A stretch of 64,000 bases of DNA, taken from contig CM059431.1 of NCBI GenBank assembly GCA_030390025.1, forward strand, positions 94,490,001-94,554,000, read 5' to 3'. Shown here one piece after another: positions 18,206 to 61,000 of this stretch. The DNA comes from Squalus acanthias (lineage: Eukaryota). The position numbers and the translations under genes were made by a program. Under the pieces are notes generated by a model. It was not told the DNA's origin. It saw only the letters and a program-made list of their open reading frames with translations, and did no database searches. The number at the start of each line of letters is the position of its first letter. The first letter of the stretch is position 1.

Positions 18206-21200
18206 CATAGAATCATAGAATCATAGAAGATAGGAGCAGGAGTAGGCCATTCGGCCCCTCGAGCCTGCTCCGCCATTCAATGAGATCATGGCTGATCATC
18301 CAAATTCAGTACCCTGTCCCTGCCTTCTCCCCATATCCCTTGATCCCTTTAGCCTTAAGAAATATATCTAACTCCTTCTTGAATATATTTAATGAGTTGG
18401 CCTCAACTGCCTTCTGTGGTAGAGAAATCAACAGGTTCACCACTCTTTGGGTGAAGAAATTCCTCCTCATCTCTGTCCTAAATGGCTTACCCCTTATCCT
18501 TAGACTGTGACTCCTGGTTCTGGACTCCCCGGCCATCGGGAACATCCTTCCTGCATCTAGGCTGTCTAGTCCTGTTAGAATTTTATAAGTTTCAATGAGA
18601 TCCCCTCTCATTCTTCTAAACTCCAGCGAGTATAAGCCCAATCGACCCAATCTCTCCTCATACGTCATTCCTGCCATCCCAGGTATCAGTCTGGTGAATC
18701 TTCACTGCACTCCCTCCATGGCAAGAACATCCTTCCTCAGATAAGGTGACCAAAACTGCACACAATACTCAAGATGTGGTCTTAGCAAGGCTCTGTACAA
18801 CTGCAGCAAGACAACCTTGTTCCTGTACTCGAACCCTCTCGCTACGAAGGCCAACATACCATTTGCCTTCTTAACCGCCTGCTGCACCTGCATGCTTACC
18901 TTCAGCGACTGGTGCACAAGGACACCCAGGTCTCATTGCATTTCCCCTTCTCCCAATCTATTGCCGTTCAGATAATAATCTGCCTTCCTGTTTTGCCACC
19001 AAAGTGGATAACCTCGCATTTATCCACATTGTACTGCATTTGCCATGCATCTGCTCAATCACCCAACCTATCCAAATCATACTGGAGTTTCTCGGCGTCC
19101 TCCTCACAGCACACACGCCCACCCGGCTTTGTGTCGTCTGCAAACTTGGAGATATTACATCTAGTTCCCTCGTCTAGATCATTAATATATATTGTGAATA
19201 GCTGGGGTCCTAGGACCAATCCCTGCGGTACCCCACTAGTCACTGCCAGCCACTCGGAAAAAGACCCGTTTATTCCAACTCTTTGCTGCCTGTCTGCCAA
19301 CCAGTTCTCTATCCAAGTCAGTACCTTACCCCCAATCACATGTGCCTTAACTTTACATGCTAATCTCTTACGCGGGACCTTATCGAAAGCATTCTGAAAG
19401 TCCAAATACACCACATCCACTGGTTCTCCCTTATCTATTTTCCCAGTTACATCCTCAAAAAATTCCAGTAGATTAGTCAAGCACGATTTACCTTTTGTAA
19501 ATCCATGTTGACTTTGACCGATCCTGTCGCAGTTTTCCAAGTGCATCTATTACATCTTTTACAATGGACTCTAGCATTTTCCCCACTACCGATGTCAGGC
19601 TTACCGGTCTATAATTCCCTGTTTTCTCTCTACCACCTTTTTTGAATAGTGGGGTAACATTAGCTACCCTCCAATCCATGGGAACTGTACCAGAGTCTAT
19701 ACAATTTTGGAAGATGACCAGTAATGCATCTATTATTTCTAGGGCCACTTCCTTAAGTACCCTAGGATGTAGATTATCAGGCCCTGGGGATTTATCGGCC
19801 TTCAATCCCATCAATGTCCCTAACACCATTTCCCTACAAATACTGATTTCTTTCAGTTCCTCCCTCTCATTAGACCCTATGTTCCCCGACATCTCTGGGA
19901 GGTTATTTGTGTCCTCCTTTGTGAAGATAGAACCAATGTATGTATTTAATTGGGCTGCCATTTCTTTGTTCCCCATTATAAATTCCCCTGATTCTGACTG
20001 CAAGGGACCTACGCTTGACTTCACCAATCTTTTTCTCTTCACATATCTATAGAAGCTTTTACAGTCAGTTTTTATGTTCCCTGCGAGTTTACTCTCATAC
20101 TCAATTTTCCCCCTCTTAATTAATCCCTTTGTCCTCCTTTGCTGAATCCTAAAGTGCTCCGAATCCTCAGGTTTGCTGCTTTTTCTGGCCAATTTATATG
20201 TCCTCTCCTTGGATCTTATGCTATCCCTAATTTCCCTTGTTAGCCACGGTTGATTCACATTTTTTGTTTTATTTTTATGCCAAACAGGGATGAACAAAAT
20301 TCTGTAGTTCATCCATGCGATCTTTAAATGTTTGCCATTGCCTATCCACCATCAACCCTTTGAGTAAAATTCCCCAATCAATCCTACCCAATTTGCGCCT
20401 CATACCATCGTAATTTCCTTTATTTAAATTCAGGACCCTAGTCTCTGAGTCAAATAATTCACTCTCCATCTTAATGAAGAATTCTATGATATTATGATCG
20501 TTCCGCCTGTGGAAGTGTATGTTTTCTTGGACACAAAATGGCTTCCTAGACACAGAAAGAGTGATACAAAATGGCCGACTCTGACTTGTTTGGGTAAAGA
20601 TAAAGTTGTTTATGACTTCTCATGGAGATGAATTTAAACTTTGCAGACTATGTTGTTTTCATAGTCTGCTAGTACAGAACAAAAAGGCTTCTTCTAATCA
20701 ACTTGAGATAACCAAGGACTAGTGAAGTAAACATCCAGATGCCTTGGCCTTGGTGGGAGAAGAAGAACAGACAGACAGACTCCATGACTGTAGAGATTAG
20801 CTAGTCTCATCGTAAGGCATTTCTATTTTTTTAACTTTTAACTTAGCTTACTTTAAACAACATGTCATGTGATATGGAAAGCTTGTATTTTCAGTGTATA
20901 AAGATGTTCCATTTTCTGTGATTCTTCAGAATGTCATGTAACCGTTGACTACATGCAGTCTCCTTGCGTGCAAGTAAATAATAAAGCCTGTCTTTTACGA
21001 TATTTTATGTTTCAAGAGTCTTACTCGGAAGTCGAAACTTCGACACGCCCCAAGGGGCCTCGCACAACAAGATTGCTAATTATTCCTTTCTCATTACATA
21101 ATACCCTGTCTAAGATGGCCTGAGCTCTAGTTGGTTCCTCGACATATTGGTCCAGGAAACCATCCCGAATACACTCCAGGAATTCCTCCTCCACAGTATT

Positions 21201-32332: not shown

Positions 32333-33284
32333 GGGCTGGAATTGCTGGGTTCCTCCCGCATGGTGCGGGGGGACCCGAATGACGGCGGGAAACCCGGAAG
32401 ATTAGGTTTCCCGGCATGCTGTGGCATTTTAACTCGATAGCGAGTGTGCAACGTCAGGCGCAGGTTCCCCGCCTGGATGTCAGCCTGATTGACAGGCTGG
32501 CTTCCAATCGTGCGGGGAACTCGGAGAAGGAGGCCGCAGCAACACGTAAGTGCTGGGCCCAGGATGGGGCGGGGGAGCCACGGGGCGTTCCAAGCCCGGA
32601 GGGGGGGTTCAATCCACCAGAGGGTGGTCGCACTCCCTGTCCCTGGGGTGAGGGGAGTTGCGATCCCGGGGGGGTTCAAGGCCTTGTGGGGGGGGTGTGG
32701 GCGTCTGATCTCGGGGGTTGGGAGGGTCAGCTCCCTGACCCCGGGGAGGGGCGGGCTGATGGTGGGGGAGATTGGGGGGCCGGGAGGGTCAGCTCCCTGA
32801 CCCCGGCGATGGGTGGGCTGCTGGTGGGGGAGATTGGGGCGCCGGGAGGGTCAGCTCCCTGACCCCGGGGAGGGGTGGGCTGCTGGTGGGGGAGATTGGG
32901 GGGCCGGGAGGGTCAGCTCCCTGACCCCGGGAAGGGGCGGGCTGATGGTGGGGGAGATTGGGGGGCCGGGAGGAAGCACTCCTGCTCCTCCCAGCCCACA
33001 AGGATTTCTCCCCGAGGCTGAGGCCGCCTCGTAGCAGCCACCGGGAATCCCGAGTCCCCAAAGCAGGTTAAAGTAGAGGCTTCAGGCCACATTATCATAT
33101 GTAAATTGCCAACCCGCCTCTTGGCAGCGGATGGCAGCCCCCCCACCCCCACCCGTCCCGCCTGAGTGAAAGGTGAAAGTGGGCCGGTTGGAGGCCGGTT
33201 GGGGTCGGGGTTCACATTTTTTCAACTTTCACTTCTCCCCCCACGCCTCCAACCCACCCGTTTTAGCTCAAAAAATTCTGGCCC
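32333..33284. mobile_element. GC-rich Harbinger-type non-autonomous element with an internal minisatellite
   Basis: TIRs GGGCTGGAATT / AATTCTGGCCC; right end resembles that of the 8326-8996 MITE. Confidence 0.7.
32720..32972 (+). repeat. 62-bp G-rich minisatellite, 4 copies
   Basis: GGGAGGGTCAGCTCCCTGACCCC... recurs at 32720, 32782, 32844 and 32906. Confidence 0.92.
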
Positions 33285-35239: not shown

Positions 35240-35610
35240 ATGCCCACCATACTGTAAAACTCCAGTAGCACCACTGCAGTACTGTCAAACCCCAGGACTC
35301 CCACCCTAGTATCATCAAATTACAGGACCCCCACCCCAGTATTGTCAAATCCCAGGACCCCTAATCTAATTTTGTTAATCTATAGGATCCCCCACCCCAG
35401 TACTGAAAAACTGAAGGACTCCCACCCCAGTTCTTTAAACTTCAGAACCCCCATCCCAGTACTGTTAAAATTCAGGACCCATACCCAGTACTATCAAACT
35501 CCAAGTCCCCATTTAGTTACTTTCAAACTTCAAGACACCCACCCCAGTACTGCAAAACCCTAGGACCACTTCTCAGTGCTACCAAGGTGCGGGACTGCCC
35601 CCCAAGTGCA
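35240..35610 (+). repeat. Degenerate ~30-bp minisatellite (CCCCCACCCCAGTACTGTCAAA..CAGGA)
   Basis: Motif CCCAGTA..T.AAA..CAGGAC recurs about a dozen times. Confidence 0.8.
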
Positions 35611-39658: not shown

Positions 39659-39875
39659 ATTGGGAGCAGCAGCGAGAGCAGACCGACTTGTGAGGGAACA
39701 GGCGAAGGAGGAGCGAGGAAATAAAGCCCGAGGCTCGAGGCCCAGGCCGAGCTATTGGGAGCAGCAGCGAGAGCGGACCAACCTGTGAGGGAACAGGCGA
39801 AGGAGGAGCGAGGAAATAAAGCCTGAGACTCGAGGCCCAGGCCGAGCTATTGGGAGCAGCAGCGAGAGCGGACCA
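39659..39875 (+). repeat. 95-bp tandem monomers (about 2.3 copies) at the CR1 5' end
   Basis: ATTGGGAGCAGCAGCGAGAGC recurs at 39659, 39754 and 39849. Confidence 0.9.
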
Positions 39876-42406
39876 AAACAAGCAACATTCGAAAGTGATG
39901 TCAGAGATTAAAAGTGACGTCAGCACAAGGGAAGGAGCTGATTGGTAAGTAGGACCTGGTGAGTATTTCTACAGTCCAGTCGTTAAAGTAAAAGTAAGGT
40001 CTCTAGTTTAGAGTAAGTAGTGTTTAAAGTGAAGTAAGGTCCCTAGTGTATTTAATATTCTTTAATTTAAAGGAAGTAAAGGGACTAAATTAAGGGTAGG
40101 ACATGGCAAGGCAGCTCGGCAGCGTGGAGTGCTCCTCCTGTGCTATGTGGGGAGTCAGGGACACTTTCGGTGTCCAGGGCGAACACGTGTGCAGGATGTG
40201 TCTCCAGCTGTAGCTACTCGAAATCCGCGTTTCGGAGCTGGAGCTGCAGCTGGAGTTACTGTGGAGCATCCGCGAGGCTGAGATCTTCATGGATAGCATG
40301 TTTAATGAGGTGGTCACTCCGCAGGTAAAGAGTGCACAGGCAGATAGGGAATGGGTGACCGCCAGACAGAGTAAAAGAACTAGGAAGGTAGTGCAGGAGT
40401 CCCCTGGGTCCATCTCCCTCTCCAACAGATTTTCCGTTTTGGATACTGCTGGGAGAGATGGTTTCTCAGGGGAATGCATCAAGAGCCAAGTCCGTGGCAC
40501 TACGAGTGTCTCAGCTGCACAGGAGGGGAGGAAAAAGAGTGGGAGAGCAATAGTGATAGGGGATTATATCGTAAGGGGAACAGATAGACGTCTCTGTGGC
40601 CGCAGACGTGACTCCAGAATGGTATGTTGCCTCCCTGGTGCCAGGGTCAAGGATGTCACTGAGTGGCTGCAGAACATTCTGAAGGGGGAGGGTGAACAGC
40701 CAGAGGTCATGGTCCATATCGGTACCAACGACATAGTTAGAAAGAGGGACGAAGTCCTGCAAGCAGAATATAGGGAGCTAGGGAATAAATTAAAAAGTAG
40801 GACCTCAAAGGTAGTAATCGCAGGATTACTCCCAGTGCCACGTGCTAGCGAGAGCAGAAATAGAAGAATAGACCAGAAGAATGCATGGCTGGAGAGATGG
40901 TGTAGGAGGGAGGGATTTAAATTCCTGAGGCATTGGGACGATTCTGGGGAAGGTGGGACTTTTACAAGCTGGACAGGTTACACCTCGGCAGAAATGGGAC
41001 CAACATCCTCGCAGGGGGGCTTGCTAGTGCTGTTGGGAAGGATTTAAACTAGTTTTTCAGGGAGCTGGGAACCTAAGTGTGGGCCCAGAATGGAGAGAAA
41101 CAAAGCTGGAAGTGCAAGTTAGAAAAGTAGTCAGCAAAACTAGTAGGGAGCAGAAATAAAGGCCAACAGTAAAGAGGGTCAAAGTGCAGAAAAATATTAA
41201 ACAGGCAAAGTTGAAGGCACTTTATCTAAATGCACATAGCATTCGCAACAAGGTGGATGAAATAATGGCACTAATAGAAGTAAATGGGTATGATTTAATT
41301 GCCATTACAGAGATATTGGTGCAGGGTAACCAAAGCTGGGAACTGAATGTTCCAGGGTACTCAACATTTAGGAAGGACAGACAAAAAGGAAAAGGAGGTG
41401 GCATAGCGCTGTTAATAAGGGATGAGATCGGTATGGTAGTGATAAAAGATCTTGGCTTGGCAGATCGTGATGTAGAACTGGAATCAGTTTGGGTGGAGCT
41501 AAGATACAGCAAAGGACAGGAAACATTGGTGGGAGTTGTGTATAGGCCACCAAACAGTAATGGTAATGTAGGGCACAGTATCAATCAAGAGATTAAAAGT
41601 GCATGTAACAAGGGCAATACGGTAATCATGGGGGACTTTATCTACATATTGACTGGGCAAATCAAATCAAAATGGTGTGGAGGACGAATTCTTGGAATGC
41701 ATGCGAGATGATTTCCTGGATAAGTATGTGGAGGAACCAACCAGGGAACAGGCTATTCTGGATCTAGTACTGTGTAATGAGAAAGGGCTAATCAATAATC
41801 TTGTGGTAAAAGGGCCTTTAGGGACAAGTGACCATAATATGATTGAATTTTACATTAAGTTTGAGAGTGATGTTGTCCAATCTGAAACTAAGGTCTTCAA
41901 TCTAAACAGAGGAAACTACAAGGGTATGAGGGACAAGTTGGCCATGGTAGATTGGGAGACTACACTAAAAGGTATGAAGGTGGATATACAATGGCTAACA
42001 TTCAAGGAAATAATGCATAATTTGCAACAAACATATATTCCTCTAGGGCATAAAAACCCAAAAGGAAAAGTGATCCAACCATGGCTAACAAAAGAAATTA
42101 AAGCTAGTATTAAGTCAAAGGAGGAAGCTTATAAAGTTGCCAGAAAAAGCAGTCAGCCTGAGGATTGGGATCTTTTTAGAAATCAGCAAAGGGGGACCAA
42201 GAAATTGATAAAGAAAGGGAAAATCGAATATGAGCACAAACTAGCGAAAAATATGAAAACAGATTCTAAAAGCTTCTATAGGTATGTGAAAAGGAAAAGA
42301 CTGGCAAAGGTAAATGTAGGTCCTTTACAGTCAGAGACGGGAGAATTTATAATGGGGAATGAGGAAATGGCTGAGAAATTAAATAAATACTTTGTTTCTG
42401 TCTTCA

Positions 42407-43366
42407 CATAAGAACATAAGAACATAAGAAATAGGAGCAGGAGTAGGCCAATCGGCCCCTCGAGCCTGCTCCGCCATTCAACAAGATCATGGCTGATCTG
42501 ATCCTAACCTCAAATCTAAAGAACACAAGAAGTAGGAGCAGGACTCGGCCACTCAGCCCCTGGGCCCGCTCCGCCACCCACAGGGCCCTGACCGATCCGA
42601 ACTCAGCCTCATGTCCAATTTCCTGCCCGCTCACCGTAACCCCTAATTCCCTTTACTTCTAGGAAACTGTCTATTTCTGTTTTAAATTTATTTAATGATG
42701 TAACTTCCACAGCTTCCTGGGGCAGCAAATTCCACAGACCTACTACCCTCTGAGTGAAGAAGTTTCTCCTCATCTCAGTTTTGAAAGAGCAGCCCCTTAT
42801 TCTAAGATTATGCCCCCTAGTTCTAGTTTCACCCATCCTTGGGAACATCCTTACCGCATCCACCCGATCAAGCCCCTTCACAATCTTATATGTTTCAATA
42901 AGATCGCCTCTCATTCTTCTGAACTCCAATGAGTAGAGTCCCAATCTACTCAACCTCTCCTCATATGTCCACCCCCTCATCCCCGGGATTAACCGAGTGA
43001 ACCTTCTTTGTACTGCCTCGAGAGCAAGTATGTCTTTTCTTAAGTATGGACACCAAAACTGTATGCAGTATTCCAGGTGCGGTCTCACCAATACCTTATA
43101 TAACTGCAGCAATACCTCCCTGTTTTTATAATCTATCCCCCTAGCAATAAAAGCCAACATTCCGTTGGCCTTCTTGATCACCTGCTGCACCTGCATACTA
43201 ACTTTTTGATTTTCTTGCACTAGGACCCCCAGATCCCTTTGTACTGCAGTACTTTCCAGTTTCTCGCCATTAAGATAATAACTTGCTCTCTGATTTTTCC
43301 TGCCAAAGTGCATAACCTCACATTTTCCAATATTGTATTGCATCTGCCAAATCTCCGCACACTCAC
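42407..43366 (-). mobile_element. Young 5'-truncated CR1 nested in the opposite orientation inside the full-length CR1
   Basis: Uninterrupted RT C-terminal frame (within ORF 42609..43577), (TTCTTATG)3 tail, apparent TCAC duplication; host reads VSVFT|EEDT across it. Confidence 0.92.
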
Positions 43367-49585: not shown

Positions 49586-50738
49586 CTGACATTCCAGGGA
49601 ATCTAATAATGAATCAAGGACTGGAACTCACTAAAGCTGACGTAAGCTAGAAAACAGTATTAGAAAAAATAATATGAACGTACATACGAACATACGAATT
49701 AGGAGCAGGAATAGGCCACTCAGCCCCTTGAGCCTGCTCCACCATTCAATAAGATCATGGCTGATCTGATTACTCCACATTCCCGCCTACCCCCGATAAC
49801 CTTTCACCCCCTTGCTTATCAAGAATCTATCTACCTCTGCCTTAAAAATATTCAGAGACTCTGCTTCCACCACCCTCTGAGGAAGAGAGTTCCAAAGAAT
49901 CACGACCCTCTGTGAGAAAAAAATTCTCTTCATCTCTGTCTTAAATTGGCGACCCCTTATTTTTAAATAATGGCACTTAAGACTGACAAATCCACAGAAC
50001 CTGATTGTTTCCACCCTAATGGCTTAAAGGAAATAGGTGAGGAAATTGCAGATGCTTTAGCTATAATTTTCAAAAGCTGTCTTGATTCAGGAATTGTCCC
50101 TTTAGGTTGGAAAATTGCAAATGTAACTCCATTATTTAAGAAAGGTGTGAGAGAGAAACCAGGAAATTATAGACCTGTTAGTCTCACATCTGTTATGGGA
50201 AAATTATTGGAATCTATAATTAAGGACAAAGTGACTGAGCACTTAGAGAAATGTAAGCTAGTTAGAAAGAGCCAACATGGATATGTAAAAGGTAGGTCAT
50301 GTCCCACTAACCTAATTGAATTACCTGAGGAAGTAACTAAAGTAGTAGACAGATGAATGTCTATGGTTGTAGTTTATATGGACTTCCAGTAGGCATTCAA
50401 TAAGGTTCCACATAAGAGACTGTTCGCTAAAGTTAAAGGCCATGGAATTGAATGCAAATGCACGATGCACGATCTGTCCATGCCCTTTGAAGGTAATGCA
50501 GGCAGCACGCGAAATTCATACTGCCTGCTAATTAACATAATGGAAGTGCTGAGCGTAATGCTGAACGCACTGCTGGTTGGCTCAGCACTCAGCAGGGGCT
50601 CCAATTTTGTGGGAAGTGTGATCTCTATTTAAAGGTTGCCTGCAGAGTGAAACACTGTCTGCACTTCTTAAAGGGGGGGTGTGCTTTCTGAAAGAAGCAC
50701 CTAATTGTTAGCGTAGGTCAGGAAAGGGGAAGGTACCA

Positions 50739-52633
50739 ATGTCGCAACATGGCAGAGAAAGGGCACCTTGGTTCTTGGACACAGCACTGGAGGCCTTAGT
50801 GCAGGGGGTCGATAGGAGGAGACAGGCCCTCTACTCGCAGGGGGCCAGGAGGCCCTCCAGACAGACTGTACGAAGGCAGTGGGAGCAGATTGCTGAAACG
50901 GTCAATGCTACCAGTCTTTCCCCCAGGGCCTGGATCCAGTGCCGAACGAAGTTTAATGAGTGGTCAAGGTCAGTGAATGCATCTTCAAATGTCATATCCG
51001 ACCATCTGCACCACTAGCCTCACACATTGCTCAATGCACCACACACCCATCACTCACCTACCAACAATCTCTATCAATCACAACTCATATCTAACAATCA
51101 TAGCTTCACCTCGCCATCACACACTTACCAATGTTACAAGCCTCATACCCACATCTTACACATTTCATACTATTCAACCATGACAAGCATATCACCCAAA
51201 CACATTGCACCGCACTCACTGACACACTTCCCTTTCTCTTGCAGGCCAAGGTGGCACATAACCGGCACCAGCAGCAGCTAACAGGCAGGGGGCAGGCACG
51301 GCTGCAGAACCTGACCCAGCTGAAGGAGACTGTGCTGGATATCATTGGAGGGGCCGTCACTGAGTCCGTGGTGATCTGCAAGGCTGAAAGCATTGATGAT
51401 GACGGTATGCTCATAGTTAATCTTCATTCTCACATCCTACTTCCCCCTCATCCCACAATCTCTTCTCACTTGCCAGCTGCTAATGGTGTAAGCATGCACA
51501 TTTTCCTTTCCCTCCGCCCCCTCACCACAATCCTACCCTTGTGCCTTTCTCCTTTCAAATACCGAAGAACTTCCACCAGCCCAGCCTGTGCATGAGAATA
51601 AGAGGAGGAGGGTGTTAGAGAAGAGACACTGTCAATTGATCTGACACTCGCAGGCACCAACTCAGAAAATGTTACTGCGCGAACTTTAGAGGGTAGTATA
51701 GAGGCATGATCTGCATGTGGTGAGTCACCGGGCACGAGTGGGCAGCAGCCAGGACAGGGGAAAGGGTAACACAGGGGCCAGCTCCCCAGAGGGTGAGGTC
51801 ACACATGGGTTCTGCTGCAGTGGAGTCAGATGAGGACTTTGATGGGGCAGCCTTCGGAAGAAGGGTGAATGACATACACATGGAAATGCTTGGTGAAATG
51901 CCAGGTCTACCAGAGAGCCTGTTGTCACTGTCAAGGAGAATGAAGGCGTCCAGCTCCAACTTTTCCCAAACCTTTGCGCAGAGCTTGGAGTCCATGATTT
52001 CCAGGATGGAAGTGATGAGCAACTCCATTAGAGCACTTGTGGCCCCAACCATGATGCAGGGTCTGATTGGGCAATGTCTCAGCTTCCATTGGAGCACAAG
52101 TGGAAGCAACAAAACGTCTGAGTGCTGCAATGGAAACTCAGACTTCTGTTATGCAGGCTCAGCTTACTACCATGCAAACTCAGACTGCTGCCATCATGGC
52201 TGCATTTACCAGTGTTGAAAGGGACTTTCAGGGTCTCTCAGTCCAGCAATCTGCCCTCCAACAGATTACTCGGATTGTTGAGGCGCCTCCCTGGGGGAGT
52301 GGCAGTGGCTCTGTGGAGCATGAACCTGCTGTCCTCTCTCAGGGTGACAGGTTTCATCCTCCCACCACTGCCACTGCATCAGTGCCCTTGCTGTTGCCTG
52401 TCAGCCAGCCAGTACAGACTGCTGCCCCCCATGCCGAGGTGGTGCAGTCTACAGCTGGGCCTTCTAGGTCCAGAGCTGCTCGAGATTGTCCTGCAAGGCC
52501 ATCTGCAGTCTCCCCCATGAAAAGTCAGCAGCCTTCCACCAGCCATGCTGCAGCCACTGGCATAGCACTTTGTAGGAGCACTAGAATAGGCAAAGGCACA
52601 CAAAAGACAGACATTAACGGAATGTACAAGTTG
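50739..52633 (+). pseudogene. Harbinger Myb/SANT gene, 3 exons (50739-50968, 51245-51404, about 51560-52633)
   Basis: RERAPWFLDTALEALVQGV..WEQIAETVNA..WIQCRTKFNE; exon 2 AKVAHNRHQQQLTGRG; GT donors at 50969 and 51405. Confidence 0.82.
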
Positions 52634-52894
52634 ACCTTGTTATGTAATTTTGGAATTAATCCTTTATAAATTATGTTTGGAATGTTTCTTATGTGGTGGC
52701 TTTCATTTCAGCATTGTGACCAAGAGGACGCTGTGATGATCCGTGACAGAGGGTTGGTAAGGTGGGGAAATGTTGAGCAACGGGGATCTGGGGTTTCATT
52801 CAGGGGAACCGGAATCTGATGATGCGCTCACGGACAGCCTGTCAGGAACGGGGATTTGCAGGCTGTCTCTTCCTTCCTCCTCCTCCTCCTCTTC

Positions 52895-53141
52895 CTCCTC
52901 CTACTCTTCCTCCTCTCCCTCCTCCTCCCCCTGAGGTGGTCGTGGAACCTGTGGTGGCAAGAGCTGTGCCCTCATGATAGCCAATTTGTGAAGGATGGAG
53001 CATGTAAGAAATAGCTATTAGATTCATAGATGAAGTTTGACTCTTAGAACAGAAATTAAAATGCAGTCAGGAACAAATGGTTGAAGTGTCAGCAAGGTCA
53101 AATAACAAACACCAAAATGATAAGAGGATCGTAAAATGCAA
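52895..53141 (+). repeat. 247-bp direct duplication, copy 1 (copy 2 at 57168-57414), flanking the ERV
   Basis: No mismatch seen by eye; offset 4273 bp. Confidence 0.93.
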
Positions 53142-54443
53142 CAAGCCTTCTATAAAGTTCCGGCTAAAGTTAAAGAGACCGAGTACCTGTCGTACTCCTC
53201 TCACGTTTATGGGCCTTGGCATTTGGCTGATTGCCTCCTTCCTTTCCTCTGGCATAGCCCTTTTTCCCATACTGACCCTATACCCGAGGTATGTGACTTC
53301 CAATTTTCCTACCTGGGCTTTGGCTGGGTTTGCTTTAAAACCCGCCTCCCGTAGGGTTGAAAAGACCTTTACCAGGGCCCCCTTATGTCCCACTTTCGTT
53401 TCTGACGCTATTAGGAGGTCATCCACGTATTGTAAGAGGGTACTATTTTCACCCTCTAAGTCTAGGTCTTCAAGAGCTCTGGCCATATGGCGGTGAAAAA
53501 TGGCTGGACTGTTATGGAATCCTTGTGGGACCCGTGTCCATGTATACTGTTTGCCGCCTATTGTAAAGGCGAACTTTTCCTGTGATTCCTCATGCAGGGG
53601 AATGGACCAGAACCCGTTTGCGATGTCTAACACGGTGAATATTTTGTGTTCCGGTTTTAAACCGTTAAAGATAGTAGCTGGGCTTGCTACAATTGGATAT
53701 TCCTTTGGGGTCACTTTATTTAAGGCTGTGTAATCGATTGTAAGTCGATATGACGCATCAGGTTTCTTTACGGGCCATACTGGAGAGTTAGTGCCGGACA
53801 CTGTTTCTCGCAGAATTCCCTGTTTCACGAGTTCCAATACTATACTCCGTACGGCTGTCTGGGCCTCCACTTTTAGGGGATATTGTTTATGGGGTCGGTG
53901 GGTTGGCCCGGGGACTCTGACTGGGTTCATCTTAACCAGTCCGCAGTCCTGCTTGTGTTTGGCCCATAGTTCGGGGAATCGGTGGCAAATTGCCCCCCAC
54001 CCTCCCTTTTCGTCCCATTTGGGGTCTATTATTTGGATAGCGCTGATGGCACATGCTGTCTTGGATCCCTTTGAGTTATGTCTCCCTTCCTTGTGGTTAT
54101 CGGGCCATAGCAACTTATCCTGTTTGGGGTCTATTAAAACTCCCACTTCCCTTAGTATGTCTATACCCAGGATGGTTCCCTCAGTATTCTCACAGATCCA
54201 GAAACATGTAGGTATAATGATTTTTCCCAATTCTAGTAATACTGTCTCACTTTTCCATGCTTTAATTTTTACTCCCCCTATCCCAGATATAAAAATATTT
54301 TCCTTGGTTCGCGGCAAGGGTACGTTTGTTAGAGATATTGCTGCCCCGGTGTCTATGAGCATTCTGCACTGTCGGCCCCCTACCAGTGCCTCAATAAACA
54401 TTCTAGGGTCTCCCTTTACCGGGTCTCCGAGGGCCGCTACCTT
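53142..54443 (-). CDS. pol: Retroviral protease + reverse transcriptase (truncated; no RNase H or integrase)
   Basis: LIDTGA, ILGIDIL (PR); KQYPL, NSPVWPVKKPD, LDIANGFWSIP, YTWTRVPQGFHNSP, QYVDD (RT); same frame as gag after TGA. Confidence 0.93.
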
Positions 54444-55991
54444 TCAGGCGTTGCCTTTTTTTATCTGTTTGACCAGTTTTTCCATTTTCCTTGTCAGCTC
54501 CACTATGTCTTCCTCGTCGGAGGTGTCTGAGGAATCATCTCTCTTATACTTCCTACTCTTTCTCCTCTTCCTTTCTTCTCTTTCTCTGTCATCCTCCCAG
54601 TCTTGCATTCCCTTCCTGATCAGTTTCGCCATGCTTTCCTCGTTATTCTCTGACCTTCCAATACTTGACCCCGGTTTTCCTCCCTGTCTAGGTCCCTGAC
54701 CTTCCCTTCCTCCTCCTTTATTCCAACATTGTTGTTTCCTATGCCCTGGTTTTCCACAATTATGACAGGAAGCCTTTTGCTGAGATGTCTGATTATCCCC
54801 TTTGTTCTGTTGCCTCGGGCAATCCCTTTTCATGTGGCCCTCCTGTCCGCAACCGAAGCATGCCGCCACACTTAATGCATCCTCATTGTCGCTATCCGTC
54901 CTTAGGGCAGCTATTTTAGGTTTGGCTTGTTCTTGGACCTGATTATCTACTTCGCACGCCCACTGTATTAAGTCCTCCCAATTATGGTGGACCACTAGCC
55001 CCATTTTTATTGCATTCTGGTGCATTGGACTTAGTCCCTGTTTAAATGTTTGCAGAAAACAAGCGTTGTTTTTGTTTAAGGGGCCTGGGATCCCACAGTT
55101 ACCCTCAAAGGCGGACCACTTTCGTTTTCCATAATCGATAGCGCTTTCTCCCTTTTCTTGTGTGATTCCGCTTATAGCTGCCCAATTTACGGGGGCCTGT
55201 CCCATTGCTGCTTCCACAGCGGCCTTGAATTGGTCGAACTCAGTGTTTAATTGTTGGATTGTCTGTCCTGTATTTGTGGCCCACTGGCCATTTCCGTGGT
55301 TGCCCTGCACTAATCTCCACTGTTCCTCGGGACATTTAGCTCGTACCAATTGATCGATATCTATACTATGTAGGGCATGGTTTATGCGTACTTCGCGCAG
55401 TTTGTGCCAGAATGTCTGATTATTCTGGCGGTGTTTTAAGGCTGGTAATTCATTGAGGAGAATCACCCGATCCTGCAGGCTTAACGGTGTGTAGGTCAAC
55501 GTTGTGGTGGCCGGCCTGCCCGGTACTGCCGGGACGGCCGGATTCCCCCCTGCCGCCGGAATTTCCGGAACCGCGGGGATTGCTGGCCTATATTGCAGTG
55601 TCACTGGTGCCATCGGAACAGGCTCCGGGGCTGCCGACTGGTGTCCTGTATATGGGGGAGGACAGCCAGTCGGCCCCCCCTGGGGCAGCTCCGGGTATAA
55701 CCTTTCCTGGGAGTTACCCGGTTTTGGGTTGGCTGCAGCTGCTGGATATGTTTTAAGGGCTCCGCGCTGGAGCATACGTTCCCGATCGTATCGTGCCGCT
55801 ACGATAATGCACGCTTTCTCCAATTTATTTTTGGTTTGTTTCCTCCACCAGTCCCTTTGTGTGTCTGGTTTATCGTCCTGGTTCCACCCTGCCTTTCTCA
55901 TTTTCTCAATTAATTTTTTATTCTTGTCGTAAACATATCGTGTTACAGACTCTGGGTCTCCCCAGGGTTCCTTATCCTCTTTGCTAGCCAT
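54444..55991 (-). CDS. gag: Gag polyprotein, 515 aa, intact
   Basis: LYPEL and PPPY late domains, MHR-like ITQEKGESAIDYGKR, two CCHC knuckles CFGCGQEGHMKRDC and CHNCGKPGHRKQQC. Confidence 0.93.
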   Translation of the reverse strand: MASKEDKEPWGDPESVTRYVYDKNKKLIEKMRKAGWNQDDKPDTQRDWWRKQTKNKLEKACIIVAARYDRERMLQRGALKTYPAAAANPKPGNSQERLYPELPQGGPTGCPPPYTGHQSAAPEPVPMAPVTLQYRPAIPAVPEIPAAGGNPAVPAVPGRPATTTLTYTPLSLQDRVILLNELPALKHRQNNQTFWHKLREVRINHALHSIDIDQLVRAKCPEEQWRLVQGNHGNGQWATNTGQTIQQLNTEFDQFKAAVEAAMGQAPVNWAAISGITQEKGESAIDYGKRKWSAFEGNCGIPGPLNKNNACFLQTFKQGLSPMHQNAIKMGLVVHHNWEDLIQWACEVDNQVQEQAKPKIAALRTDSDNEDALSVAACFGCGQEGHMKRDCPRQQNKGDNQTSQQKASCHNCGKPGHRKQQCWNKGGGREGQGPRQGGKPGSSIGRSENNEESMAKLIRKGMQDWEDDREREERKRRKSRKYKRDDSSDTSDEEDIVELTRKMEKLVKQIKKGNA

Positions 55992-56018
55992 AGTTTATTT
56001 ATTTATTTATTTATTTCT

Positions 56019-56400
56019 TTTTCGGCCAGAAGGAACTCCCCGTTTTAACTACTACCTAAGTTTACTTTTCGGCCAGAAGGACTCGCCCTCCACCGTGTTA
56101 AAACTCCCCGTTTTAACTACTACTTAAGTTTACTTTTCGGCCAGAAGGACTCGTCCTCCACCGTGTTAAAACTCCCCGTTTTAACTCCTACTTAAGTTTA
56201 CTTTTCGGCCAGAAGGACTCGTCCTCCACCGTGTTAAAACTCCCCGTTTTAACTCCTACCTAAGTTTACTTTTCGGCCAGAAGGACTCGTCCTCCACCGT
56301 GTTAAAACTCCCCGTTTTAACTCCTACTTAAGTTTACTTTTCGGCCAGAAGGACTCGTCCTCCACCGTGTTAAAACTCCCCGTTTTAACTACTACTTAAG
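56019..56400 (-). repeat. 68-bp tandem repeat array in the ERV leader (5 units + 1 internally deleted unit)
   Basis: TTTTCGGCCAGAAGG at 56019, 56066, 56134, 56202, 56270 and 56338. Confidence 0.95.
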
Positions 56401-56628
56401 AGCCGCACCTCGTGGGCCTATCAGGTTTCTAAACCCTTGTTTTCCGGTACCGCAGTCCGGCAGTGTTAACCGCCTTCAATTAAAGGTGTCTTTCTTTTTA
56501 TAGTTCTTTTGTACGTCAATCTTACTTAACGTCTCGCCAGCGATTAACCTCTAATTTTACAGGTGGTAATTTAAACGTACTCACCCGTCTTAGGTTATCG
56601 CTGTCCGAGAGTTTTGTTCAGATCGCGC

Positions 56629-56646
56629 ATCCCATCCTCGTCGCCA
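56629..56646 (-). promoter_or_regulatory. Primer binding site for tRNA-Ser(GCU)
   Basis: TGGCGACGAGGATGGGAT, 2 nt after the LTR CA; complementary to the vertebrate tRNA-Ser-GCU 3' end ATCCCATCCTCGTCG-CCA as I recall it. Confidence 0.9.
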
Positions 56647-56648
56647 AT

Positions 56649-57167
56649 TGATGTAAGCTCCCAAAGTGCGGACCCAGTGATATACAAGGTCGACGCTACT
56701 GAGCTTGTTGGAAGAAAGACTGACCAAGTAATTGAAGTCACAACGGTTTATTACAGGCCTGGGGAGAACCTCTCATGTCGCTTACATGAGTACAACTCCA
56801 CCGAGCTAATGAAAACACACATATTTATATCCAATCAGGTTTAAAAGTTACACACAATGCTAGGTCTAAAAAAACACATTACTCGTTTTACAAATATTTC
56901 TGTCTTGCCTTTACAGAGATCCAATTAGGTTTAAAAGTTACTTGGTTAGCAAACATTTCTGTCTCGCCTTATGGGGATCTCGTTATCCGAGGGTGGCTGT
57001 AAAAGTTACATACAATGCTATCTGTAAATCTCGTTGAAGGAGGTAGACTCCGAAAGCTTGTAAGGTGTTGTGTGACTTGAAACAAATCTCGTTAAAGGCC
57101 TGGCTTTCTGCAAATGAGTCATGCCCGAATTGCCCTGGTTATATCCAATTTTTAATATCTTACTTCA
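56649..57167 (-). mobile_element. ERV 5' LTR (519 bp)
   Basis: Termini TGAAGTAAG...CTTACATCA; TATAAA near 56825-56830; AATAAA at 56747-56752. Confidence 0.9.
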
Positions 57168-57275
57168 CTCCTCCTACTCTTCCTCCTCTCCCTCCTCCTC
57201 CCCCTGAGGTGGTCGTGGAACCTGTGGTGGCAAGAGCTGTGCCCTCATGATAGCCAATTTGTGAAGGATGGAGCA

Positions 57276-58025
57276 TGTAAGAAATAGCTATTAGATTCAT
57301 AGATGAAGTTTGACTCTTAGAACAGAAATTAAAATGCAGTCAGGAACAAATGGTTGAAGTGTCAGCAAGGTCAAATAACAAACACCAAAATGATAAGAGG
57401 ATCGTAAAATGCAAGAAAACACAGGAGGATAACATCGTAACTAGAAAACAAAGAGCCACAAAGTCATAAAATGTCCTTAAAGAAACATAACAAAACATTC
57501 CTCAGAAAGATAAGAGAAAGGCCTTGTCAGCCATGCAGAAAGGGGCAGTGAGAAATGTCTGCCCGCACCACACTTGGATTATAAATGATTGACACTAGAT
57601 AGATCACAGCCCACCGAAATAACTATAAATATAGACCACTGAGAGAGGAAATCGGACAGCGAGGGGTGAAGGCTTTTTCGACGTGGAAATCAACACTGGC
57701 TCAGACTAAGTTTAGCCTCTGAGGTGGATCAATGCTGGCTTATGCCTAACACCTCCAACAGCTCGGGGGACGAATCAACAGAAGTGACTGCTGTTACTGG
57801 CTGCAGAGACCCGCTGACCCGAGACCTCCAACCGTCCATCCGGTCGTGGCATTCCGCTTCGGGAGTTGTAGATCGCTCTCTACTGTCACGGGTTGTATGT
57901 CTATTATACTCAGCTTAAACCACATGTAATATCTGATGATGCATTAAAACTGTAGCTCTTTAATAAAAAGCCTTACAACTCCTAAGACCCTTTGGGTAAT
58001 CTGTGTGTGACCTGTGATCCTAACA
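57276..58025 (+). mobile_element. Solo LTR (750 bp), unrelated to the ERV LTR
   Basis: TGTAAG...CTAACA, GCA/AGCA target duplication, TATAAA near 57624, AATAAA near 57962; interrupts the transposase codons VVVC|SILH. Confidence 0.85.
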
Positions 58026-61000
58026 GCAGACCACCACACATTGGGACACCCACTCCAGTAAGTGCTGGAGAGCTCCTCCTGAGCGGTCAAGGTCGTGGAA
58101 CCATTGCTTGAGCACCCCAATAGTCAGCTCATTGACATTCCTTGTGGCAGCATGGCTGTCATTAAATGAGTGCTGGCCACGAGTGGTGGGTTTGTGTAGG
58201 GGAGTCATCGGCCAGGTGTACAGCGGATAGCCCTTGTTGCCTAGCAGCCACCCTCTTGTTCGACATGGCGGCTGAAAGATTGCTGACACAGCGGACTGGC
58301 ACAGGATGAAGGCATCATGACTGCTGCCAGGATACCGTGCATTCACCATCATGATGTGCTGGGCGTGGTCGCACGCCAACTGCACAATAAGTGAGTGGTC
58401 GCCTTTGTGGTTACAGTACATCTCAGCATTGATATGTGGCACCTGTTTGTGCAGTTGATGGCACCCTGCATCATGGGGAAGCCTGATATCCTGGCAAAGC
58501 CACATGTATGCCCCTCCTGCTTCTCTCTGTTTAGAGAGAAGAAAATTAATTTCCTCCTCCTAGAGTACAGAATATTTGTGACCTCCCAGTTGCAGCAATG
58601 GGTGGCGAACTGTGAGATCTTTGTTATGTTGCCTGTTCCAGTCTGGAAGGATCCGTTGGTGAAAAAGTTCAGGGCCATGGTCACCTTGAAGGCCACTGGC
58701 AGCACCATCGTCATCCTGCTCTGAGGTTGCAGGTCTGGTAGCAGGAGGTGACAGGGTTCTGCGACCACCTCCGTGGTGAAGCGGAGCTGCTGAACACACT
58801 GCTCCTGGCTTAGGTGCAGGTAGGAGAAGTGCTCCCTGAAGACCCTGGGTAGGTAAGACCTCCTGCTGAGAGCCCATCTCCCCCCCACTCCTCCTCCCTC
58901 TGCGAGCAGCTTGTCTTCTTTGCTGCCTCTGTTCCAGCCCCCTGTCATGCTGTAGCACGAGGAGGACTGCAACTAGAGCCCCCATGACTGGGAGCAAGTG
59001 GTGTACTCCGAGACCTTCCAGTAGCTGCCAACACCTTCCCAACATCCAGCAGCACTCCCTGCACACTTTAACAAGGTTATAAATAGCTTCCAGCAACCCA
59101 GTACAGACTCTGCAAGAGCCAGTATGAGAAATAATCAACTTACCTGCAAGTTGGATGTATCCCTGTAAATAATGCTGGTGGGGGCAGGCGGGTCCTTTGT
59201 GTGGCTTTAGGAAAGGGAATTGATTGGAGTGGCGACATCGAAAATGGCAGGTCTTGCTTCAAATCAGCGTTACATGCTGACTGAAGTCGTGATCTGCCTA
59301 CTCTGCATACTGCCGACCTGCTCCTGCTCCTATTTCTTATGTTCGACATATAGGTGAGAAACAGGCCTAAGTCTTACACACCCAGTCCCACCAACCAGCC
59401 CCACAAGGATAGCCACTGGCTGTCTCTTCTATACCCACTGAGTGTAAATGTTGGTGAGGAGGCTGGGCCCAACAGCCGCTGGATTTGCCTGCTTACTGCT
59501 GCTGTCTCTATTGACTCCAGGGACCTAGCAAGCATAGGGTAGCAGTAATCCCTGGGGCAGTAGTGGTAGCCCCCTAACTCACAGAATCGAGGGTGAAGGT
59601 CGAGTAGTGGTCGTCTCTCCCTGCACATAGGCCCCAAATGCAATTCTTTCCCCTATTGGCTGAATCCGATGCCATCAAAGAAAATTTAAATGCACCACTA
59701 CATTTTCTGGCCTTTAATGGTGGGGGTCCCACTGGGAGCCCAGCATGTTTACTTAAAGAGTCCTGTCCCAGGAAAATAGGTCGGGGTTACGACAGGTTTA
59801 GGGCGATGGGTTCACTGTGAGGAAAGTCCAGCCCTACACCTTCAAAGTGTATGTAGAACATCATCTTAGTAGATGATTCAATGTAGTTTTCAGCCTCTTC
59901 CATTCAAGCAGCCTGACTCACACTTTGTCATTCTGGTTTTCTCCTATTGTTGCGTTATTATTACCATCTCTGGTCAGAATGGCTGTGAATATTACAGAAA
60001 GAGGAAATGTTTAATTGTGTGCTGGTAAACCAGGCAGCTGACCATAAATTAAATTGTGGAGTCTTCTCACATTACAGGCAGTCTGTGTCAAGCAGTGGCC
60101 ACACGTGACTTTTGAAATATAATCCATAGAAACTGTGGGCTCCATTCAAAGCACAAAACAGAGTTTGGTCATTTCACTCTCCCAGCAAGGAGCCTCACCC
60201 ACCAGCAGAATGTATCAGAAATCTGACCATATGTTGTGTGTGGCTTGCCAGTAGGTGAAGCGCTCAGCTGGGAGCACAAGATCAACAATTAGCCGGCATT
60301 AACAACAACAACCTGTATTTATATAGCGCCTTTAACGTAGTAAAACGGCCCAAGGCGTTAAGTAAATAAGCATTGATAAAATCAGGTGCTGAGTAAAGGT
60401 GCAATGTATTCATAAACAAGTGTTTGGTGGACAGATGGCACAAAGGCATATGTCCTATCGAAACAGCATCACATCACCTCCATATCACACGATCATTATA
60501 AAAATGATACACTCTCTGTCTGATGCCCTCAAACAGAGAGAAGGCTCTGTGGAGACAGTGCCCTATTTTATTTTAGAAGGGAGAAGATTTCCCATGTCAC
60601 ATTGTCAGGATGATATGAGGGCTTGGTTTCACAATCGGGCACCCACAGAGGGCATGGAACTGGAATTCATGGGTTGTGATTAGCTGAGTTGCACCAGCTA
60701 CAGGTACCACTCCTCACTGGCAGTGCCCGGTCGCAGGTTCGGCCCTCGTGACACGACGGCACATTTCATTCTGATTCACATCACGGTCCGTTTAGAAATT
60801 AAAAAGGGATTCTGTTGACAACAGTACCCCTCACAAGTAATGTGTGGGTTTATGAATTAGCTTCCCCAGCACATAGCTTCATGGAGCCAGGAGCATTGAG
60901 CAGAAATGTTTTTATTCATCCATCACTCACATTCAAAGAGCATTGCCTTGCACAGGTTAGAAAGAATGCCATAGAATGTTTTTGTCACTGTTGCAGACAG

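Follow-up and report, generated by a model that had tools for sequence, protein, structure and literature searches.

The window analysed here, a 64-kb stretch of Squalus acanthias DNA, contains a Harbinger-type DNA transposon, the transposase of which is interrupted by an older solo LTR (Table 1). Terminal inverted repeats of the Harbinger element were looked for and none were convincing, and the coordinates given for it are not bounded by defined ends. Contigs of the family to which the solo LTR belongs are 4-8% divergent. Inside this host DNA, between two copies of a 247 bp sequence, lies a minus-strand endogenous retrovirus (ERV) remnant made up of an LTR (57167-56649), a primer-binding site (PBS), gag and pro-RT, with no 3' LTR. 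No tRNA genes were found in the window, and there were no Rfam matches in 50000-60000.

Table 1. Features of the ERV remnant and the surrounding host locus
Feature	Position	Strand	Evidence and remarks
Harbinger-type DNA transposon	50712..59258	.	Myb/SANT ORF pieces on +, DDE transposase pieces on -; Myb_DNA-bind_5 and DDE_Tnp_4 matches
Polypurine (GAG)n-like host tract of the Harbinger tail, 69 bp	52865..52933	-	66/69 purines in viral sense; TRF period 3 x 19.3
Duplication copy 1, viral-downstream	52895..53141	.	247/247 vs 57168-57414; Harbinger acidic tail runs on leftwards
Lone junction base, fits neither ERV family nor host continuation	53142	.	ERV family from 53143; solo-LTR family to 53141; mismatch to 57415
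pro-RT, open, broken in RT thumb/connection	53143..54443	-	RVP and RVT_1 matches; stop-free translation
In-frame TGA separating gag and pol	54444..54446	-	One stop in the 53142-55994 frame
gag, 515 aa, open, two CCHC knuckles	54447..55991	-	ORF; zf-CCHC match; second knuckle from translation
Leader tandem array, 68 bp x 5.4	56034..56400	-	TRF, 97% matches
Primer-binding site	56629..56646	-	2 nt past the LTR's CA; read from sequence
5' LTR, 519 bp, TG...CA, sole LTR of the provirus	56649..57167	-	Inverted repeat ends 8/9; AATAAA at 56752
Duplication copy 2, viral-upstream	57168..57414	.	Leads into the remainder of the solo LTR
Older solo LTR, 750 bp, TG...CA, interrupts Harbinger transposase	57276..58025	+	AATAAA at 57962; flanks GCA/GCA

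The preliminary description of this DNA had the provirus begin precisely at the terminal TG of the LTR, and this is supported by the terminal inverted repeat, the first 9 bases matching the reverse complement of the opposite LTR end at 8 positions. The window contains no further copy of this LTR, and neither a second LTR nor an LTR fragment was found around the broken end (53143). The PBS resembles a tRNA-Ser 3' end, and the TGA between gag and pol is a putative readthrough-type junction. RNase H, integrase, env and the 3' LTR are missing, while homologues run on into the tether, RNase H and integrase; the nearest of them, P0002, carries PF17919, PF00075 and PF00665.

The order LTR-PBS-gag(CCHC)-PR-RT is present, and the RT is nearer to those of retroviruses than to Ty3/gypsy. 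The best relatives with solved structures were foamy Pol (E 2e-50) and an MLV-type RT (E 3e-48), versus E 7e-25 for Ty3, and the best protein relatives are 58-59% identical. An RT tree was built from 51 hand-picked members of the 120 listed matches, P0087 and P0096 being dropped for short alignment, which left 50 rows including the window sequence. In this tree the RT falls beside P0002 (support 0.93), with Heterodontus more loosely attached, and away from the gypsy elements and the REV cluster. Hence, identification as a gypsy element was rejected on both E-values and tree. The closest affinity appears to be with basal fish/shark retroviral lineages, the nearest named protein being from Heterodontus francisci (57%), in a tree without snakehead, foamy or lokiretrovirus references. 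When viral and metagenome contigs were scanned for the family, the protein patterns gave 4 and 74 matches, respectively, none of which was confirmed, and the LTR-end pattern gave 0 and 0.

The sequences 52895-53141 and 57168-57414 are identical at 247/247 positions and their ends are flush, with 0 bases of extension on either side, in agreement with the preliminary description. Apart from the provirus's own leader array, this pair is the sole exact repeat of ≥60 bp in the window and is therefore far beyond chance, and a chance repeat was rejected. The repeat consists of 108 bp of the Harbinger transposase tail (57168-57275) and the first 139 bp of the plus-strand solo LTR, a make-up that had been proposed and that the DDE_Tnp_4 match upstream and the reading frame bear out. 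Because the host reads continuously as left flank, one 247-bp copy and solo-LTR remainder, the repeat represents duplicated target sequence rather than captured DNA, and the same context implies an empty allele that would carry a single copy. Same-chromosome tandem duplication alone was rejected, as a second LTR or provirus would remain.

Public contigs reveal a young, near-identical, multi-copy retrovirus family, and the sequence over 53143-54400 has 1 difference from the family contigs designated X1 (about 1/1,258). As the two copies of the repeat do not differ either (0/247, upper 95% bound 1.2%) and gag and pro-RT are open, the provirus is very young.

The other end of the provirus had been described as broken mid-RT at 53142. 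The break is indeed in RT, but it falls late, in the thumb/connection region that follows the YVDD motif, and the match to ERV-family contigs begins at 53143, not 53142, in 4/4 sequencing runs. Solo-LTR-family contigs end at 53141, and the two bases at 53143-53144 are compatible with both sides of the junction. The search for microhomology or filler that had been proposed, run against family contigs, found ≤2 nt shared plus one unmatched base, and from its letters the junction looks more like end joining. No stable hairpin was found at either junction. Family contigs go past the break by 1,779 (X1), 2,012 (X5), 430 (X3) and 96 (X7) letters and, as these near-identical sequences continue up to 2 kb beyond 53143, the break is specific to this copy. 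An LTR-gag-pol-host recombinant that had spread is disfavoured, since a multi-copy junction would be expected in the contigs and was absent among the pieces listed.

The contig comparison covered the contigs of 4 of 14 public sequencing runs over 52200-54400 (one repeat copy, with the tract at 52865-52933 skipped); the listed output comprised 32 pieces out of 34,475 and 24 loose ends out of 791, none of them at a junction. Contigs drop rare variants. Both junctions are known from the assembled sequence alone, and that neither was seen spanned by a read or contig in this span counts against one-ended integration. It is improbable, in our view, that a provirus-haplotype contig ending in the repeat was joined to an empty-haplotype contig through a false 247-bp overlap. 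Such an artefact would suit the 100% identity of the copies and a near-identical, multi-copy family that is hence hard to assemble. No contig among the pieces listed bridges 53141-53143, and in 4/4 runs the depth bin 53162-53235 was accounted for by a single family contig, where a junction contig of depth at least 5 should add about 0.7 or more. However, the private bases of this copy, at 53652 and, in the flank, at 52662, are also missing from the contigs of all four runs, so the contig sets do not represent this copy and the missing bridge is uninformative. In addition, the window is N-free, and a base foreign to both sides is unexpected from a clean haplotype switch.

Concerted retroviral integration generates a target duplication of 4-6 bp. 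Here the duplication is 247 bp, there is one LTR instead of two, and TG...CA does not occur at both provirus ends. What is found is a precise TG at 57167, a truncated end joined to host DNA and a duplication of hundreds of bp, as in one-ended integrants. We favour, with moderate confidence, a single aberrant germline event in which integrase joined the U3 end only and the other end was sealed by host repair, with 247 bp copied in the process; the youth of the locus fits a single event. At 57167/57168, the processed U3 end would have been linked to host DNA by integrase. The U5 end would have stayed unjoined, because its strand transfer failed or because synthesis of the plus strand had stopped short or left gaps; in the latter case, the standard reverse-transcription scheme leads one to expect a mature U3 end together with a free 3' end inside the viral DNA. 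Repair may then have connected the internal end, which lies 4,025 bp away from the U3 end, with host sequence 247 bp upstream of where the virus inserted, and the outcome would be 247 bp on both flanks of the remnant. The viral 3' end could have primed on nearby host or sister DNA and been resolved by recombination, as in the model of PMC5041404, or strand displacement could have started at the host nick and been followed by end joining. L1-type retroposition was rejected as the insert starts at U3 and has no poly-A, and internal deletion in reverse transcription was rejected as a U5 remnant is absent.

Though novelty was implied in the preliminary description, both this architecture and the one-ended explanation have been published before, for human HML-2 (6p25.2 and 21q21.1) as well as for HIV, RSV and XMRV integrants. 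The 3'-truncated HML-2 proviruses have duplications of 111 bp and 450 bp (PMC5488345, PMC4422153) and, like the Squalus acanthias locus, are germline ERVs with one LTR, a truncated interior and a long, near-perfect host duplication. The long repeats at HML-2 loci have been ascribed to inefficient integration, by analogy with RSV experiments (PMC4422153, PMC5488345). The Squalus acanthias locus differs in that the virus is not betaretrovirus-like, the host is a shark and not human and the repeat is mismatch-free; its U3 joint, moreover, lies in a polypurine tract. HML-2 duplications of >10 bp were found at 8/451 sites, two of these 3'-truncated, and one at 7p21.2, of 250 bp, flanks a solo LTR (PMC5488345). 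That most of the long-duplication HML-2 sites are solo LTRs counts against one-ended integration.

In cells, one-ended integration leaves one end normal and the other truncated and most commonly duplicates hundreds to thousands of bp of host DNA; the aberrant integrants of HIV-1 and ASLV/RSV arise when one end is bad, when the inhibitor is suboptimal or when integrase is weak (PMC5041404). These resemble the present locus in the normal end, the truncated end and the duplication of hundreds of bp, but are experimental and somatic, and short homology is usual, though not universal, at their junctions (PMC5041404). The in-register microhomology of ≤2 nt here, broken by an unmatched base, counts against one-ended integration, as does the 0/99 and 0/85 aberrant integrants in unperturbed HIV infections (PMC5041404). 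In an untreated XMRV infection, 1/15 proviruses (clone C-3) had a 273-bp duplication beside a damaged end; 5 bp were lost, at the U3 end, and both LTRs were kept (PMC2857682). The kilobases lost here (the rest of pol, env and the 3' LTR) compared with those 5 bp are a further point against. Asymmetric-LTR HIV-1 proviruses also have an intact 5' LTR and a large 3' loss, but their deletions end within the 3' LTR, part of which, including the U5 end, is retained, and are ascribed to reverse transcription (PMC9278108). In the Squalus acanthias provirus no 3' LTR base is left, and host DNA is duplicated. PMC6407205, PMC10435555, PMC12193657 and PMC7947760 provided background only.

The preliminary description had specified half-site integration, and the anatomy and youth of the provirus fit that proposal. 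However, the letters alone do not separate it from later repair off an empty homologue, and this counts against the one-ended reading. In that case, a provirus that had integrated normally, with its 4-6 bp duplication, would have suffered a break in pol while still heterozygous. The distal end would have copied the empty homologue back across the site for 247 bp before end joining attached it to what was left of RT, and tandem duplication with a subsequent deletion would have the same result. We regard such rearrangement after integration as unlikely. It gives exactly the letters seen, new insertions are long heterozygous, and one filler base with ≤2 nt shared is generic end joining. On the other hand, two events would have to fit within the short time that 0/247 and about 1/1,258 differences allow. 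The normal template for repair of a mitotic break is the identical sister, not the homologue. Duplication-plus-deletion models have been proposed for 6p25.2, but the truncation point there is common to four apes and no longer allele is reported in the excerpt of PMC5488345. An empty allele by itself would not separate one-ended integration from later homologue repair, and recombination between long repeats can recreate an 'empty' allele (a caveat in PMC5488345); the 247-bp repeats here can excise the remnant cleanly and so mimic one. A different two-step history, in which a duplication of >247 bp around a complete provirus was followed by deletion of the 3' half of the provirus and part of the repeat, is very improbable: most long-duplication HML-2 loci keep complete LTR ends, so long repeats without truncation do occur, but a second event would be required in a very young locus.

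The odd feature of the locus is that the U3 joint lies inside the 69-bp polypurine tract, which is oriented as a viral polypurine tract (PPT). One-ended integration does not predict a tract there and, as about 0.15% of positions are of this kind, this too counts against it. Of the 37 bases adjoining the LTR, 36 are purines in the viral sense, and window positions with 19/20 purines upstream make up 0.15-0.16%, those with 28/30 only 0.03-0.05%. The tract may have blocked the second strand transfer or attracted a break as non-B DNA. It could also point to insertion without integrase, starting from a break in the host (GAG)n tract. The purine-rich 3' end exposed there would have paired with the PPT complement, carried either by a 1-LTR circle or by a reverse-transcription intermediate; LTR-PBS-gag-pro-RT would have been copied for 4 kb before a switch back to the host 247 bp upstream, and the 'integrase-perfect' TG end would be the PPT boundary. 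We consider this quite improbable. The purines before the TG occupy the place and strand of the PPT before a 3' LTR, few window positions are as purine-rich, and on a 1-LTR circle, too, a single LTR precedes PBS and gag. Nevertheless, the idea is post hoc and the tract is plainly host, encoding the Harbinger acidic tail. Furthermore, there is a 2-nt spacer between the LTR U5 end and the PBS, and if U3 also has a spacer, insertion by this route should have kept it; none is evident. A literature search for integrase-free PPT-primed insertion gave no paper with 4 of the 5 terms sought. If this route were true, some 'integrase-perfect' ERV ends with long duplications would be repair products, marked by a PPT-like host flank.

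Provided that the junctions are real, this is a clean germline record, and a very young one, of concerted integration having failed in a non-mammalian host; no other such record was found in the open literature searched. One locus by itself does not alter any model. In a family with so many near-identical copies, however, one could count how often aberrant integration occurs naturally and test for preferential loss of the U5 side; it is the 3' side that is missing at the Squalus acanthias locus, at 6p25.2 and at 21q21.1. ERV pipelines that rely on target site duplications would miss or misdate such loci.

The 247 bp at 52895–53141 recur at 57168–57414 with all 247 bases identical, and the match cannot be extended by a single further base. 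The window contains no N, and the only other exact repeats of at least 60 bp in its 64 kb belong to the leader array of the provirus. As the preliminary description had stated, the same 247 bp lie on both sides of this minus-strand retroviral remnant. They consist of 108 bp of Harbinger transposase tail joined to the initial 139 bp of a solo LTR 750 bp in length. The Harbinger acidic tail carries on to the left of the first copy and the solo LTR to the right of the second; this implies a single copy at the pre-insertion site, and, judged from sequence, the repeat is a target duplication. Captured DNA as its source is ruled out by the same host continuity, and a longer original repeat with a deletion afterwards is very improbable.

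Three layers are nested between 50712 and 59258, namely the Harbinger transposon, the solo LTR and lastly the ERV; ends of the Harbinger element were sought in the window and not found. The solo LTR splits a Harbinger transposase motif in frame and is flanked by GCA on each side, which is a direct repeat of 3 bp, or of 4 bp (AGCA) with one A lost at the right end.

Features of the provirus and of the solo LTR
Feature	Position	Strand	Description
Solo LTR	57276–58025	+	750 bp, inside Harbinger element
LTR	57167–56649	−	519 bp; end inverted repeat 8/9 bases
PBS	after 2-nt spacer from LTR	−	read from sequence
Tandem array in leader, between PBS and gag	56034–56400	−	68 bp × 5.4, 97 % matches
gag		−	515 aa, open, CCHC knuckles
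In-frame TGA between gag and pol	54444–54446	−	single stop
pro-RT		−	open frame, ends at break beyond YVDD motif

The proposed start of the provirus at the terminal TG of its LTR (57167) was borne out by the pairing of the LTR ends. The PBS presumably resembles the 3′ end of tRNA-Ser. MLV-type viruses read through a TAG between gag and pol, and the TGA found here may be a putative, and unusual, opal readthrough site. The RT is retroviral by its scores, foamy and MLV-type enzymes scoring near 1e-50 versus 1e-25 for Ty3, and in a tree of 50 rows, which held no snakehead, foamy or loki references, its partner was an unnamed protein (0.93), a Heterodontus protein joined them loosely, and gypsy elements stood apart. 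The Heterodontus homologue and the shark-type repeats listed below suggest a cartilaginous-fish host. Its homologues go on past the break into the tether, RNase H and integrase, and neither a second LTR nor any piece of one is present for the provirus. Lacking a 3′ LTR, transcription from the intact 5′ LTR would run into the Harbinger tail. The RT frame enters an antisense piece of the solo LTR for 25 codons (53067–53142, minus strand) and then meets a stop.

Contigs from four of 14 public runs were compared with window positions 52200–54400. In one run the main family contigs differ from the window once over 53143–54400, at a depth near 590, against 10–25 for all but one of the four long contigs listed for the flank, the exception having 51; the summed depth for the Harbinger transposon exceeds 100,000, contig depth not being equal to copy number. 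The ERV family is young and multi-copy. A second variant of lower depth, differing at 7 of 119 bases (53304–53422) in three runs, is possibly a subfamily or a recombinant patch in RT. In all four runs the family contigs start at 53143 and then extend for 96 to 2,012 letters unlike the window, and contigs of the solo-LTR family stop at 53141, so base 53142 fits neither side; 53143–53144 match both. The break previously placed mid-RT at 53142 does lie in RT, after YVDD, though not at that exact base. No contig among the 32 listed of 34,475 pieces in the four runs bridges this junction, and no extra contig was seen in the adjoining depth bin. However, none of the four runs contains the bases private to the window at 53652 and 52662, so the contigs do not represent the window copy and the unbridged junction counts only weakly against a one-ended origin. 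Assembly error is unlikely; the structure is real in the assembly and probably a fossil of one-ended integration.

The preliminary description had proposed half-site integration, and one-ended integration is the reading we favour, with moderate confidence, for the provirus and its repeats, other histories retaining some weight. Under the standard scheme of reverse transcription, second-strand transfer is directly followed by maturation of the U3 end, and the U5 end awaits full plus-strand synthesis, so unfinished or gapped cDNA would lose its 3′ side, as here. Strand displacement from a host nick followed by end joining would give the same product, and suits the junction because of its one filler base. 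When integrase inserts only one end in cells, the other is often truncated, and its joining most commonly duplicates hundreds or thousands of bp of host DNA; a proposed route has the free viral 3′ end priming on nearby DNA before recombination (PMC5041404). Of 15 XMRV sites, one had a 273-bp duplication adjoining a damaged end (PMC2857682). The locus fits this pattern.

Later breakage of a normal provirus, with repair from the empty homologue, would yield letters identical to those of the window, and duplication-plus-deletion models were proposed for one human case (PMC5488345); we consider such a repair improbable, yet the strongest competitor. The U3 joint lies within a tract of 69 bp in which, read in the viral sense, 66 bases are purines; of the 37 bases directly before the TG, all but one are purines; 19 of 20 upstream purines occur at about 0.15 % of other window positions. 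This tract, a post hoc observation, counts against a plain one-ended event and permits an integrase-free route, unlikely overall, in which the host tract imitates the PPT and starts synthesis on a 1-LTR circle. It may also be due to chance or to the structure of the target.

Among 451 HML-2 (HERV-K) sites, 8 have duplications >10 bp (PMC5488345). The one at 7p21.2 measures 250 bp; that at 6p25.2 measures 111 bp and surrounds a truncated provirus with one LTR, the truncation point of which is common to four apes. A 3′-truncated provirus with a 450-bp duplication is also recorded, and the long repeats of such proviruses were put down to inefficient integration, citing RSV work (PMC4422153); thus, the interpretation first offered for this locus is already published for germline ERVs. 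Asymmetric HIV proviruses form a separate class since their deletions stop inside the 3′ LTR (PMC9278108). No non-mammalian case was found in the openly accessible literature.

The absence of differences over 247 bp bounds divergence of the duplicates at <1.2 %, and the provirus departs from its family by no more than about 0.4 %, calculated over 1,318 letters in which overlapping stretches count double (1,258 unique), versus roughly 4–10 % for the host solo-LTR and Harbinger families among the pieces listed. By these divergences, insertion and duplication are both recent.

Elsewhere, the window holds many LINE fragments, tandem arrays at 32713–32973 (62 bp), 35250–35552 (30 bp) and 39659–39876 (95 bp), and dispersed SINE/LINE-tail-like repeats at 420–511, 18206–18297, 42407–42498 and 49675–49766, which we take to be shark-type and SINE-like.
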